Below, piece after piece: positions 5,288 to 25,155 of a stretch of DNA of 33,208 nucleotides (position 1 is its first letter; every line of letters begins with the position of its first letter). The DNA comes from a virus (lineage: Duplodnaviria > Heunggongvirae > Uroviricota > Caudoviricetes), in IMG/VR virus record IMGVR_UViG_2579778919_000008; one strand, written 5' to 3'. The notes below the pieces were generated by a model. The model was not told the DNA's origin. It saw nothing but the letters and a program-made list of their open reading frames with translations, and searched no databases. The translations under genes were made by a program, and so were the position numbers.

Positions 5288-6488
5288 CGATAATCTCCAG
5301 CTCTTTATTTACTTTGGCGCGACGCTTACGTGATTTGCGTTTTTTCGGATAAGCATCCGGTATCCATATTCCATCCTCTTTGAGCCGCAGGGTGGTAATG
5401 GTGTTGTCTGGACGACCACCTGAAAACTCTCTTCCCATGAGGAAGTAAATGTCATCAATGCCATGCGGCTCGCTTCGGACACGAATACGCTGGCCCGGTT
5501 GCCATAACTGACCGTTCTCCATGCGATGGCCTTTAACAATTACTGTCAGATCAAACCCGTTCAGACGGGCGTCAGCCATGGCCTTTCTCGCGCGATAATC
5601 AACCTGCGCCTGATTATCAGCATCACCAGCAACCATAATCTGCGGACGATAGAAAGGTACGGTACTGTCGCGAACGGTACTACGTAAGCCATGAAAGCCA
5701 TTCTCTGCAGAGCCGGTGCTGTCATAAATTGCGTCGGCATCATCATCGTCTTCAGCCTCAGCGCTCTGATCATCAACGTCAATAACTTCCAGTCTTCCTG
5801 ACTTTTTCCCCTGGCCGTGTCCCTGTGCCAGCATTGTCAGTTCAGAGAACGCACCGGTAATGGATGACCGGTCACTGAGATCGAGGACATTATTTCCCCG
5901 ACCGTCACGATTCAGAACAAGCGTGGCTACAGGGTCTTTTGTGTAATCCGGCCCTCCAATTACCAGCGTGCCATCTGGCTCAAACCATGGCCATAACCCG
6001 CGTGCAGCAGCTGCACGCTCAAGGGTATCCCACGCACGTTCTCCGGGCTCCACGCTGACCTTGTCATTACGCAGGGATGATTCAGCCTCGATGCGGATGT
6101 TCGTTATCCCCAGCGGTCTGACAACCTGGGCGATCACCTCTTCAAGACTGAGCTGGCGGGAGGTAAAAACGGGTGAAGCGCAGTCAACAAGCACGGCTGC
6201 ACCATCGCGACCGGAAAGAGATAAAGAAACCTGCTGACGGGATACCCGGCGCTGAACCACATCCACCCGACCGGACATGACAACATCATTACCCACCCTG
6301 ACCAGCACCGGCACACCACGTTTAATGGCCGGAGGGAAAATACCATCAGGCAGCCCAAGCGTTACGCTCCATGCATCGGCGGGGATTAGAAAGTCGGAGT
6401 CAATCTGATAGCGGCTCCATGCACTATGGATTTTGCCATCAATAACAAGGCTCACTGTATTCTGCGAATTTTTATCTTGAGTAGGCAT
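5271..6488 (-). CDS. Tail/baseplate protein P (Mu gp44-like, P2 gpD-like)
   Basis: 405 aa ORF between N-like and spike genes; overlapping start/stop with both neighbours. Confidence 0.65.
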   Translation of the reverse strand: MPTQDKNSQNTVSLVIDGKIHSAWSRYQIDSDFLIPADAWSVTLGLPDGIFPPAIKRGVPVLVRVGNDVVMSGRVDVVQRRVSRQQVSLSLSGRDGAAVLVDCASPVFTSRQLSLEEVIAQVVRPLGITNIRIEAESSLRNDKVSVEPGERAWDTLERAAAARGLWPWFEPDGTLVIGGPDYTKDPVATLVLNRDGRGNNVLDLSDRSSITGAFSELTMLAQGHGQGKKSGRLEVIDVDDQSAEAEDDDDADAIYDSTGSAENGFHGLRSTVRDSTVPFYRPQIMVAGDADNQAQVDYRARKAMADARLNGFDLTVIVKGHRMENGQLWQPGQRIRVRSEPHGIDDIYFLMGREFSGGRPDNTITTLRLKEDGIWIPDAYPKKRKSRKRRAKVNKELEIIDVEQN

Positions 6489-22535: not shown

Positions 22536-22820
22536 TCACAGCTCCAGTTTTGCGCGAATGAGCAGAATCGCCACAGTGATGACACCGCCTGCAATTCCAC
22601 CCGTAATCGCACCGGCAGACGCACCACGGCTAGCCGCATCGTCGCTGATGGTCGTGAGGCGAACATCAATTCGGCTCAGCTTGTCATTAATCCCGCCCAG
22701 AATGTCCGGGCTGACGGGGGTCTGCAGGCGTTCGAGCTGAGCGGAAATCCGGCTCAGCGTTTCCTGCTCGCTCTGGCTGATTGTCGCGCGGCGGGTTCTG
22801 CGCTTATGTCTGGCTTTCAT
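22536..22820 (-). CDS. Hypothetical protein with C-terminal transmembrane segment
   Basis: 94 aa; basic N-terminus, Gly/Ala-rich hydrophobic C-terminus; ATGA overlap with upstream ORF. Confidence 0.4.
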   Translation of the reverse strand: MKARHKRRTRRATISQSEQETLSRISAQLERLQTPVSPDILGGINDKLSRIDVRLTTISDDAASRGASAGAITGGIAGGVITVAILLIRAKLEL

Positions 22821-23071
22821 TTGTCCTGTTTCCTGTCCAGTTTGTTATCAATGCGCTCGATAGCCGCTCGCAGCTCCCTCATCGCATCCATCATTGCGGT
22901 GTAGTTACTTTTCGCATCCTCACGGCGCTGGTATTCATCCCGGATGCGATCAACCGCCTTTTCCAGGTCGGTAATGTCTTTTTGCAGACGGCGTATCCAG
23001 ATGGTGCCGAAGGTTGCAGCCAGCGCCAGCGCAATCTGAAAGGCCATATCAAGAGTCATGATGTTGTTCAC
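22817..23071 (-). CDS. Hypothetical membrane-anchored coiled-coil protein
   Basis: 84 aa; N-terminal hydrophobic helix then charged helical region; ATGA overlap with spanin gene. Confidence 0.4.
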   Translation of the reverse strand: MNNIMTLDMAFQIALALAATFGTIWIRRLQKDITDLEKAVDRIRDEYQRREDAKSNYTAMMDAMRELRAAIERIDNKLDRKQDK

Positions 23072-23700
23072 TTCCTGTAATACTCATTTATTGCCTGCAG
23101 CCTGCCCTCAATGAGCTGGCACCATGCGCCGTATTCCGCTGAAAACGACACTATTCCAGTGGGGGAGAGTCCGCCACCGGTGCCTGTGGTCTGGCCGGTA
23201 TGACCAGGAGCGCCGCTGGCGGTGGCTGGCAGATGCTGACCAGCGGGGAGGCTTTCGGATCCTGAGTAGCCAAAGGCTTCACGGAAGAGCTGCAGGCCGC
23301 CAGGGCCAATGCCGGTATAACCAGGACCATCTTTATCAAGTGCATCTTTAAGCCTCTTTTTAAGATCGCGAACAGTCTCGTCATGTGCCTTTTGCTTTTC
23401 AGCCAGCTCGCGGGTCAGCGCATCCGCTTTCTGCTGCCAGGCGTTCTGCTTATCAAGTGCAGCCTTCAGGTTAGCTGCATACTGATTTGCAGCGCCGAGC
23501 CTCTCCTGATCCCACTGCCGTTCTTTTTCACTGAAACCATCAGTCAGGCTTTGCTTCTCATTGCTGAAGGCCAGCGCCTGAGCGTCCAGCTTGTTGCCTG
23601 TGATGAAGGTGCCGAACCATATTCCGCAGCCTGTCAGTACCACGACGACGAGCAGCGGTTTCCAGCTAACCTTCAGGATTTTCAGGGCTGCTTCCCACAT
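23068..23700 (-). CDS. i-spanin (Rz-like inner-membrane spanin subunit)
   Basis: Start at internal Met; N-terminal TM helix (LLVVVVLTGCGIWFGTFITG) followed by coiled-coil region; contains an embedded lipoprotein ORF in another frame. Confidence 0.55.
   Translation of the reverse strand: MWEAALKILKVSWKPLLVVVVLTGCGIWFGTFITGNKLDAQALAFSNEKQSLTDGFSEKERQWDQERLGAANQYAANLKAALDKQNAWQQKADALTRELAEKQKAHDETVRDLKKRLKDALDKDGPGYTGIGPGGLQLFREAFGYSGSESLPAGQHLPATASGAPGHTGQTTGTGGGLSPTGIVSFSAEYGAWCQLIEGRLQAINEYYRK
23151..23345 (-). CDS. o-spanin (Rz1-like outer-membrane lipoprotein), embedded in the i-spanin gene
   Basis: Signal peptide with lipobox ALALAAC followed by short proline-rich mature part; fully nested in a different frame of the i-spanin ORF. 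Confidence 0.5.
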   Translation of the reverse strand: MHLIKMVLVIPALALAACSSSVKPLATQDPKASPLVSICQPPPAALLVIPARPQAPVADSPPLE

Positions 23701-23929
23701 CGCGCACCTCTCTGGCTCGTTTGATGGACATGTGTTTTGATGCCTGGCTCTGTGCCACCCATGCGCCCAGATAAGTGAAATACAGCTCACCCGGTGTTTC
23801 GGGACGGGTTACGGTGATCCAGACCAGCACGAAGGAACTGACCAGGAAGGCCAGAAAAACGATGGTATCTGACGTTGAGAGACGACCTGTGGCCGGGTTC
23901 GTCACCAGATCGCGCAGAGAGATCGTCAT
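23666..23929 (-). CDS. Holin-like small membrane protein
   Basis: 87 aa with one hydrophobic helix; start overlaps the endolysin stop (ATGA); position in lysis cassette. Confidence 0.4.
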   Translation of the reverse strand: MTISLRDLVTNPATGRLSTSDTIVFLAFLVSSFVLVWITVTRPETPGELYFTYLGAWVAQSQASKHMSIKRAREVRDVGSSPENPEG

Positions 23930-24570
23930 AGCGCCGCCTTAGCGACATTCAGCCGCGCCACACGGTCGGCCTGACCTTCAGCCGGAGGGTTGATACGGCG
24001 GGTGACAGCCAGAAAATCGCCTTTGTCCGCCAGCTCGTTGCAGCCATTTGCCTTCCAGTACCAGGCAGCGCTGCGGGCTGCGTTGAGATATTCCAGTAAC
24101 AAATCGGGATTAGCGATGAGATCGAGGCCCAGCGCCTTACCGCAAAGGAGGTAATTATTGCGCAGAGTAATCTGAATCAGGCCACGCCCGCGAAAGCGCC
24201 AGCCATCGCCTGACGCTTCATTACCGTTACCACCCTGATTTGCGTAAACATAATTCGCCATTTTTTCAGAGTTACGGGTATAGCGGCGGGCAAATTCAAT
24301 CTCACTGGGCTCGATAATACGATTCTTATTGAGATCGAAGTCGCTGCGGAAAATACGCGCCACGCGCTCAGCATCTGAATAATAGAGATTTTCACTGAGC
24401 CGACTGAAACCCGCGCTCTCATGGCCGGTTTGAGCAATAAAGGCGGCAAGCCGGGCGGGCGTATTAATCTGGAATTCAGCGGTGGCTTTACTGAATGGTT
24501 CAAACCAGCGTTGCGCCATCACTGGCGAAAGGCCTGCTGCTCGCTGAAATTGTGGGAGTGTTAAAAGCAT
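23926..24570 (-). CDS. Endolysin, glycoside hydrolase family 19-like
   Basis: 214 aa; motifs FIAQTGHESAGFSRLSENLYYS and GDGWRFRGRGLIQIT match GH19-type phage endolysins by recollection. Confidence 0.8.
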   Translation of the reverse strand: MLLTLPQFQRAAGLSPVMAQRWFEPFSKATAEFQINTPARLAAFIAQTGHESAGFSRLSENLYYSDAERVARIFRSDFDLNKNRIIEPSEIEFARRYTRNSEKMANYVYANQGGNGNEASGDGWRFRGRGLIQITLRNNYLLCGKALGLDLIANPDLLLEYLNAARSAAWYWKANGCNELADKGDFLAVTRRINPPAEGQADRVARLNVAKAAL

Positions 24571-24648: not shown

Positions 24649-25155
24649 TTATTGAGTAACATCAATTATCTCTACATCGTCACTTTCTTCAATATGCGAG
24701 GGAGGTGGGTTGTTAATTGCAAATTTACATTCCTTACCCTGTTTTATGTATGATTCACCCTGCGCATTCACAGTCTTAACATTATCAGTTTTTAATGAAG
24801 ATAGCCTTGCCATCCAATATGAGTAAGCAGTTGCTGGTAACGTAGCACAAGAGCTAAAAGGTGTAGGGTTTAAAAGAAGATTCTCCCCATACAATTTTTT
24901 CGCATCCTCATCAAGGAGGAGGAAATGACGACTCACTGCAACAACTTCAGGTGTAAGATATCCTAGGTTCTTGTACATATCAAAAACAGCAGTTGCACCC
25001 ATTAAAGTGCTCTGCGTTTCATTAAATATTCTTTTGGTTTCCTCAAGTTGATTTTTATAAGTTTCAACTGCTTTTGTATTGGGTACTGTTTTTGCTACTG
25101 CAGTAGTACTAAATACCACCAAGAAAAATGCCATATATCTCATTGCATTACACAT
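24649..25155 (-). CDS. AT-rich moron encoding a secreted/periplasmic protein of unknown function
   Basis: 168 aa with N-terminal signal peptide (FFLVVFSTTAVA-KT); markedly lower GC than flanking phage genes; start overlaps the mor stop (TAATG). Confidence 0.55.
   Translation of the reverse strand: MCNAMRYMAFFLVVFSTTAVAKTVPNTKAVETYKNQLEETKRIFNETQSTLMGATAVFDMYKNLGYLTPEVVAVSRHFLLLDEDAKKLYGENLLLNPTPFSSCATLPATAYSYWMARLSSLKTDNVKTVNAQGESYIKQGKECKFAINNPPPSHIEESDDVEIIDVTQ

Follow-up and report, generated by a model that had tools for sequence, protein, structure and literature searches.

The stretch of DNA considered here (virus record IMGVR_UViG_2579778919_000008), referred to as the window at its full length of 33,208 nucleotides (nt), is a nearly complete Mu-like (transposable) prophage, with full-length genes from transposase to tail. 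Within its lysis block, two genes are found one inside the other; both, like all other features of the block, are read on the minus strand. The outer gene (23068..23700; ATG at 23700, TGA at 23070-23068) encodes a protein of 210 amino acids (aa), the putative inner-membrane subunit of a spanin (i-spanin). The nested gene (23151..23345; ATG at 23345, TAG at 23153-23151) lies entirely within the outer one, is read in the +1 frame and encodes a 64 aa lipoprotein, the putative outer-membrane subunit (o-spanin); it takes up nt 356-550 of the 633 nt of the outer gene, or 0.56-0.87 of its length. An earlier note on this DNA had pointed to a lipoprotein open reading frame (ORF) with lipobox ALALAAC and a proline-rich mature region, wholly nested in a different frame of the 23068-23700 gene, and in both respects the description holds. 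The two frames, their signals, their conservation, the selection acting on both of them and the lysis-cassette context are all directly observed; on these grounds the pair is very probably an embedded two-component spanin, which would serve as the final component of a Mu-like prophage's lysis system.

The outer frame is open from 23790, and ATG 23700 is the sole start candidate near the stop of the upstream gene. A Shine-Dalgarno sequence, GAGG (23707..23710), is recognized by direct reading 6 nt 5' of this ATG. The 25 homologues compared show 43-94% identity, and nearly all measure 208-218 aa; Met1 is invariant among them, and Trp2 almost so. One codon 5' of the counterpart of ATG 23700, a stop codon is located in Trabulsiella, in Citrobacter and in several viral contigs, and the same counterpart is chosen as start by the Prokaryotic Genome Annotation Pipeline (PGAP) in the closest E. 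coli genome (L001). These three lines of evidence settle the start of the outer gene, previously regarded as uncertain, at ATG 23700.

The i-spanin begins with a transmembrane helix (23602..23664, about residues 13-33), with a basic N-terminal flank (K7, K10, K14). Kyte-Doolittle 19-residue windows scoring at least 1.6 cover residues 4-35 and, in the model produced by AlphaFold2 (AF2), the membrane segment is part of a continuous helix. By the positive-inside rule, the protein would be oriented N-in/C-out. A long alpha-helix, predicted to be periplasmic, follows (23329..23595, residues about 36-124, some 90 residues); residues 13-124 are modelled as helix at a predicted local distance difference test score (pLDDT) of 67-84, and the corresponding DNA shows the ordinary codon periodicity of a single frame (0.40 at position 3). 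Next comes a conserved hinge motif, DGPGYTGIGPGGLQLFREAFGY (23266..23331, residues 124-145), where D124, G125, Y128-G130, G132, P133, Q137, L138 and G144 are invariant in the alignment of homologues. It is followed by a disordered linker, rich in Gly, Ser, Thr and Pro (23164..23265, residues 146-179), and by a C-terminal helix (23071..23163, residues 180-210), marked by the motif S.EYG.WC..L...LQAI..YY and by an invariant Cys194. The secondary structure given by AF2 consists of helices at 2-124, 133-142 and 180-209, with 143-179 disordered; pLDDT is below 50 for residues 148-194.

The nested +1 frame is open over 23384..23151, and 77 aa may be read from its first ATG. ATG 23345 is favoured as start of the o-spanin: it features the best ribosome-binding site among the candidates, the Shine-Dalgarno sequence AAGAGG (23353..23358), again found by direct reading, 7 nt upstream, and it places the basic Lys5 in the N-terminal region of the signal. 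The resulting 64 aa product is called, as a 'hypothetical protein', in two Enterobacter genomes, and is mostly uncalled elsewhere. The alternatives are ATG 23330, which corresponds to an invariant Met, and ATG 23384, which has no counterpart in locus L014, where no Met precedes the equivalent of 23345 in the +1 ORF. The protein is composed of a signal, MHLIKMVLVIPALALAAC, and of a mature part, SSSVKPLATQDPKASPLVSICQPPPAALLVIPARPQAPVADSPPLE. The signal, followed by SSS, passes a lipobox rule, coded by ourselves in the style of PROSITE PS51257: the lipobox L-A-A-C, within ALALAAC, coincides with residues 15-18 (23292..23303), Cys18 is the candidate lipid-modified residue, and position +2 is occupied by Ser, not by Asp. 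The mature o-spanin, 47 residues long, contains 11 Pro and one further Cys, Cys39 (23229..23231), a candidate for an intermolecular disulfide, by analogy with Cys29 of lambda Rz1 (PMC6139136). When 15 o-spanins are aligned, Cys18, Cys39, Pro50 and Pro53 show no variation; an invariant cysteine, predicted to be periplasmic and able in principle to form intermolecular disulfides, is present in both subunits, as Cys194 in one and Cys39 in the other. The DNA is dual-coded so that the signal peptide of the o-spanin is read, in the +1 frame, from the hinge sequence and its Pro-rich body from the linker sequence.

Both proteins match PHROG families designated 'Rz-like spanin': the i-spanin matches phrog_1403 from end to end (positions 8-209 of 212, E 2.5e-29), while the match of the o-spanin to phrog_4719 (positions 8-59 of 101, E 4.6e-6) is partial, because the C-terminal 40 positions of the profile are absent from it; the set of PHROG families named for comparison also includes phrog_3450 and phrog_5369. 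For the o-spanin, no Pfam match is found at E <= 1. Taken with the transmembrane domain and helical body of the outer protein, the embedded lipoprotein and the lysis block, these matches bear out the Rz/Rz1-type architecture proposed in the earlier note; the evidence supports the use of this label for architecture and probable function, not for sequence.

A number of findings weigh against this interpretation. No Pfam or NCBIfam model gives, for either protein, a score above its curated cut-off, and the sole Pfam match of the i-spanin at E <= 0.01 is DUF2514, with 19.5 bits against a cut-off of 26. By BLASTP, no similarity is found to the tested Mu spanins gp23 and gp23.1 (best E-values 1.1 and 8.6). 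The AF2 model of the i-spanin is of low confidence (pLDDT 62.7, predicted template modelling score 0.28), and its C-terminal helix is poorly supported; the monomer was accordingly used for secondary structure only. The exact start of the o-spanin is not fixed among 23345, 23330 and 23384. Lastly, when the outer gene is shuffled by synonymous codons, 11% of the shuffles also yield an ORF with a lipoprotein signal in an alternative frame.

It is very unlikely that the pair is a decaying, non-working remnant of a defective prophage. The window is indeed a prophage, and frame-broken copies of the locus are present in Sodalis metagenome-assembled genomes (MAGs; L018, L020, L022-L024); yet, in the window, both frames, both ribosome-binding sites and all the invariant residues are intact, the surrounding prophage genes are full-length, and close relatives, at 90-97% identity, show purifying selection.

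The view that the nested ORF is a chance frame, forced by the outer amino-acid sequence and never translated, is still harder to sustain. Besides the 11% of shuffles mentioned above, as many as 42% yield an ORF of at least 64 aa starting with ATG, and PGAP leaves the nested ORF unannotated in the closest E. coli genome; the case against chance, built on the single sequence, is a moderate one. The shuffles are, however, too permissive as a null model, because the nested gene has already left its mark on the outer protein sequence; they were replaced with comparisons among relatives, made by codon position. In a six-frame scan of the whole window, the lipoprotein rule is passed by three of the 459 ORFs starting with ATG, two of which are located in the spanin locus. 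The third (6134-6346, minus strand, 70 aa) has an odd sequence, rich in Cys and Trp, and its lipoprotein signal is probably a chance match.

For the comparative tests, 62 distinct related loci were gathered from viral contigs, genomes and one phage record; among the hosts named for loci of genome or phage origin are Kosakonia, Trabulsiella, Citrobacter, Sodalis, Serratia and Photorhabdus, the phage being Pseudomonas phage VW-6B. Loss of the nested frame, looked for among these relatives, is not observed: a +1-frame ORF with a lipobox-like motif is kept in 62 out of 62 loci, and frame, lipobox Cys and second Cys persist down to about 30% identity of the outer protein. Pairwise nucleotide diversity was measured over 21 non-identical genes of the embedded type. 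At outer third positions it amounts to 0.381 upstream of the overlap, 0.199 inside and 0.350 downstream; variable outer third positions are 35 of 64 inside the overlap and 127 of 144 outside (Fisher p = 3e-7). Over codons 146-183 the most variable position is the first of the outer codon, corresponding to the wobble position of the nested frame (0.339 vs 0.114 and 0.184), and it is in the linker region that the amino-acid divergence of the outer protein reaches its peak (0.407). The halved diversity at outer third positions, together with the high variability of the inner wobble position, indicates purifying selection on the nested frame, which in the linker region is the main constraint. Retention in all 62 loci and diversity by codon position thus show, beyond what the single sequence allows, that the nested frame is real, in agreement with its match to a PHROG o-spanin family.

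The names under which the outer protein appears in public databases suggest a different function. An identical protein is listed for E. coli SCD1 as hypothetical, and besides 'hypothetical' the names 'OmpH family outer membrane protein' and 'Lipoprotein' are found, the latter two within the 90%-identity cluster. The lipobox rule is passed by residues 22-25, LTGC (23626-23637), inside the membrane helix, and the name 'Lipoprotein' may stem from there. In homologues, Cys25 is replaced by S, G or A, mostly G; not being conserved, it most likely does not undergo lipidation. That the outer protein is a lipoprotein, or an OmpH/Skp-like periplasmic chaperone, and not an inner-membrane spanin subunit, is hardly credible in spite of these names and of the LTGC motif, since the hydrophobic stretch runs on past the unconserved Cys25 as GIWFGTFI, no OmpH Pfam match is found at E <= 0.01, and the gene lies within a phage lysis block and matches the i-spanin PHROG as reported above.

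As an embedded spanin, the pair may be expected to work as proposed for lambda Rz/Rz1 (PMC6139136, PMC5295617). The i-spanin would be the inner-membrane subunit, anchored by its N-in/C-out helix and exposing to the periplasm the long helix, the hinge, the flexible linker and the C-terminal helix. The o-spanin would be cleaved at Cys18 and lipid-modified, and Ser at position +2 implies sorting to the outer membrane. Both subunits, probably as disulfide-linked dimers, would join in the periplasm, bridging the two membranes through the mesh of the cell wall, which would hold them apart until its destruction by the GH19 endolysin of the same block. Afterwards, by the same analogy, the spanin complex would fuse the membranes, or disrupt the outer one, allowing virion release.

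Several features are shared with lambda Rz/Rz1, the prototype of embedded two-component spanins: a type II protein of the inner membrane, helical in its periplasmic domain, a small, Pro-rich outer-membrane lipoprotein in its +1 frame, periplasmic cysteines in both subunits, and location of the pair in a lysis cassette. About 70% of the embedded pairs surveyed in 2018 start at 0.4-0.5 and end at 0.9-1.0 of the outer gene (PMC6139136). Differences from lambda are also evident: no lambda Rz or Rz1 model is among the Pfam matches listed, the gene order in the window is endolysin, membrane protein, spanins, and the i-spanin features a conserved hinge, a disordered linker of 35 residues and one helix at the C-terminus. 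At 210 aa, it is also longer than lambda Rz (153 aa). In Mu, gp23/gp23.1, a pair of the same functional class, similarly follow the late activator and the endolysin and precede the small and large terminase genes. The Mu pair is, however, overlapped, its o-spanin running 202 nt past the i-spanin stop, while the pair of the window is embedded. Mu, moreover, relies on an endolysin of the signal-anchor-release (SAR) type, together with a DUF2730 releasin, without a holin (PMC9239132); by contrast, the endolysin of the window has no hydrophobic N-terminal segment, and no DUF2730 match is found in the small lysis-block proteins scanned. The overlapped gene arrangement of P2 LysB/LysC, the prototype of overlapped spanins, is shared by the overlapped relatives described below. 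The window proteins do not match the P2 LysC models PF23793 or NF038368, and a single Serratia-type o-spanin approaches them, not significantly (E 0.057 and 0.1, respectively).

Compared with 50,697 phage records, the locus yields nothing at default thresholds by megablast or tblastn. The sole relative in these records, found at E <= 1, is gene 20 of Pseudomonas phage VW-6B (MF975721), annotated as 'Rz protein' (42.6% identity over residues 87-208, E 3e-3). It is similar in module order, in the embedded +1-frame lipoprotein and in the presence of the C-terminal helix on the outer protein; it differs in that it comes from a different host order, and its nested lipoprotein is unannotated, with an ORF about 8 codons longer. 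The spanin family is thus essentially known from prophages only. The two-component spanin of embedded architecture is a known functional class, treated by Kongari et al. (2018) and, reportedly, by Summer in 2007; as far as the window is concerned, the pair is very probably an ordinary, poorly annotated representative of this known type, belonging to a sequence family unlike the spanins of lambda, P2 and Mu.

The relatives differ in the frame from which the C-terminal helix is read. At 46 of the 62 loci, the window and VW-6B among them, an embedded lipoprotein gene goes together with a helix motif in the outer frame. At 14 loci (Serratia fonticola, Photorhabdus tasmaniensis, a number of viral contigs and a single degenerate copy from Sodalis) the outer stop is overrun by the lipoprotein ORF, by 4 to 172 nt, and it is the lipoprotein frame that contains the motif; the overlapped type carries labels L019, L021, L066, L067 and L069-L079. 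No helix motif is found in the remaining two, which are degenerate Sodalis copies. Arrangement and reading frame of the helix correlate perfectly among the relatives, and a common motif, ..LL.HA..YG.(W/Y)C..LE..L.., is recognizable in both arrangements. A profile of embedded i-spanins, run on overlapped loci, matches in every case the outer frame with its positions 1 to about 170, and the +1 frame with its positions 180-207. The frame switch maps to about 23160-23175 of the window, a few codons before the o-spanin stop.

Profile comparisons agree with this picture. Almost the whole of phrog_4719 is matched by o-spanins of the overlapped type, down to the C-terminal helix absent from the o-spanin of the window; three of them were scanned, and in two the C-terminal end matches, in addition, positions 179-211 of the i-spanin family phrog_1403. 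The alignment of embedded i-spanins with overlapped o-spanins by hhalign gives a probability of 95.4% (E 2e-8, 36 columns); a further run, based on two alignments sharing four sequences and therefore not independent, was not used. In the helix region of eight Photorhabdus-type loci, diversity peaks at third positions of lipoprotein-frame codons (0.192 vs 0.071 and 0.107), indicating that there this frame is under selection. The outer frame of overlapped loci ends variously, at 149, 159 or about 200 aa, and premature stops in L074/75 and L019/L069 show that its tail is dispensable.

An exhaustive profile search collected 159 cluster representatives. According to a hand count from listed lengths and matched ranges, about 58 of them are full-length and contain the helix, about 58 are short (121-145 aa, ending past the hinge) and about 14 are long and lack the helix. 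Six loci of the short type were examined (labels of short i-spanins: L082-L085, L087): an o-spanin is found at five, overlapped in all five, where the lipobox is followed by a Pro-rich stretch and then by the helix. Mu-like markers (Mor, Mu gp27, DUF2644 or DUF2730) are present in three of five short-type loci. The family comes in three forms: a short i-spanin of about 125 aa, ending at the hinge, with an o-spanin of about 90 aa bearing the helix; an i-spanin with an unconserved extra tail of variable length, and the helix again on the o-spanin; and the embedded pair of the window type, with the helix on the i-spanin and an o-spanin ending a few codons past the frame switch.

From these sequence comparisons it appears reasonably likely that the embedded and overlapped pairs of Mu-like prophages form one homologous family, and that a frameshift close to where the nested gene ends connects the two. 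A neighbour-joining tree of the N-terminal domain does not resolve whether the overlapped loci form a single clade, nor the direction of the change. Kongari et al. (2018) reported no spanin family with both embedded and overlapped or separated members, and concluded in favour of parallel, unrelated origins (PMC6139136); a literature search found no later description of a mixed embedded/overlapped family. Alternatively, in the overlapped relatives, a programmed frameshift might restore a full-length i-spanin; no obvious slippery site is, however, visible by eye in the single overlapped locus read (L021).

If both arrangements work, the helix would be located at the interface between the subunits, and could be covalently attached to either of them; a single step could then turn overlapped spanin genes into embedded ones, or embedded into overlapped. 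One insertion or deletion should be enough to turn one arrangement into the other. The family offers a natural experiment, where a conserved helix is placed on the inner-membrane subunit in some relatives and on the outer-membrane one elsewhere, through a change in the frame from which the DNA is read. Its placement suggests how nested genes arise, and makes testable both this question and that of which parts of a spanin complex join the subunits; this family-level observation, drawn from sequence analysis, might be of use to specialists of phage lysis.

Degenerate spanin loci are found in the Sodalis MAGs listed above: outer genes are truncated, frames are broken and the second Cys of the o-spanin is lost, as would fit prophages in decay. 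In one of them, L024, a spontaneous frame switch is seen, of the kind which separates the embedded from the overlapped architecture.

The genes around the pair are ordered, along the minus strand, as Mor, GH19 endolysin, DUF2644 protein, spanin pair, two small membrane proteins, DUF1804 protein and large terminase (TerL). A complete lysis block may now be named in the annotation of this Mu-like prophage. From endolysin to spanins, the order is the same in L001 and in VW-6B. The closest complete genome is that of E. coli FDAARGOS_1303 (95.7% identity), where genes for Mor, gp16, DUF3164, an AAA ATPase, a DUF935 protein and phage head/virion morphogenesis are found around the block.

The GH19 endolysin (23926..24570, 214 aa) matches PF00182 (E 8e-13) and the endolysin family phrog_181 (E 1e-81). 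No hydrophobic N-terminal segment is present, since no Kyte-Doolittle window reaches 1.6; a holin should therefore be needed. The gene between endolysin and spanins (23666..23929, 87 aa) encodes a DUF2644 membrane protein (PF10841, E 1.6e-5, above cut-off; phrog_1322, 'membrane protein'), with one strong hydrophobic segment at residues 17-43 and, as judged by reading the sequence, a second, weak one and a basic tail. The earlier note had called this ORF holin-like: position and the one clear hydrophobic segment make it a holin candidate. No mention of DUF2644 was found in the literature searched. Its stop codon, TAG at 23668-23666, and the outer ATG at 23700 define an overlap of exactly 35 nt, confirming the approximate figure previously given. 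A similarly short overlap between DUF2644 and i-spanin genes is present in VW-6B and in a Photorhabdus-type relative (L073); a regular expression for DUF2644 matched the upstream gene at three of 13 loci, and the conservation of the short overlap is thus shown for these three, namely the window, L073 and VW-6B.

Two small genes follow the spanin pair, and homologues of both hold the same positions in VW-6B. The first (22817..23059, 80 aa, phrog_462) encodes a small membrane protein; its start, ATG 23059, is supported by gene 21 of VW-6B and by PGAP in L001, and an alternative GTG at 23071 overlaps the i-spanin stop (GTGA). By reading, it features an N-terminal hydrophobic stretch, an RR pair and a coiled coil, and none of its Kyte-Doolittle windows reaches 1.6. 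It was considered as a releasin of the Mu gp25 type, which it resembles in layout; this assignment was rejected, as no DUF2730 (PF10805) match is found at E <= 10. Its homologue in VW-6B (MF975721, 2363-2611) is annotated as 'type I site-specific deoxyribonuclease, HsdR family', a label which, given this homology, looks like a mis-annotation. The second gene (22536..22820, 94 aa, phrog_1103) encodes a small protein with a C-terminal membrane helix (hydrophobic residues 67-94).

Directly upstream of the endolysin gene, an ORF of 168 aa (24649-25155, minus strand) has a hydrophobic N-terminus similar to a signal peptide. Its G+C content falls to 0.36-0.40, compared with about 0.55 in the neighbouring genes, and it looks like an acquired cargo gene ('moron').

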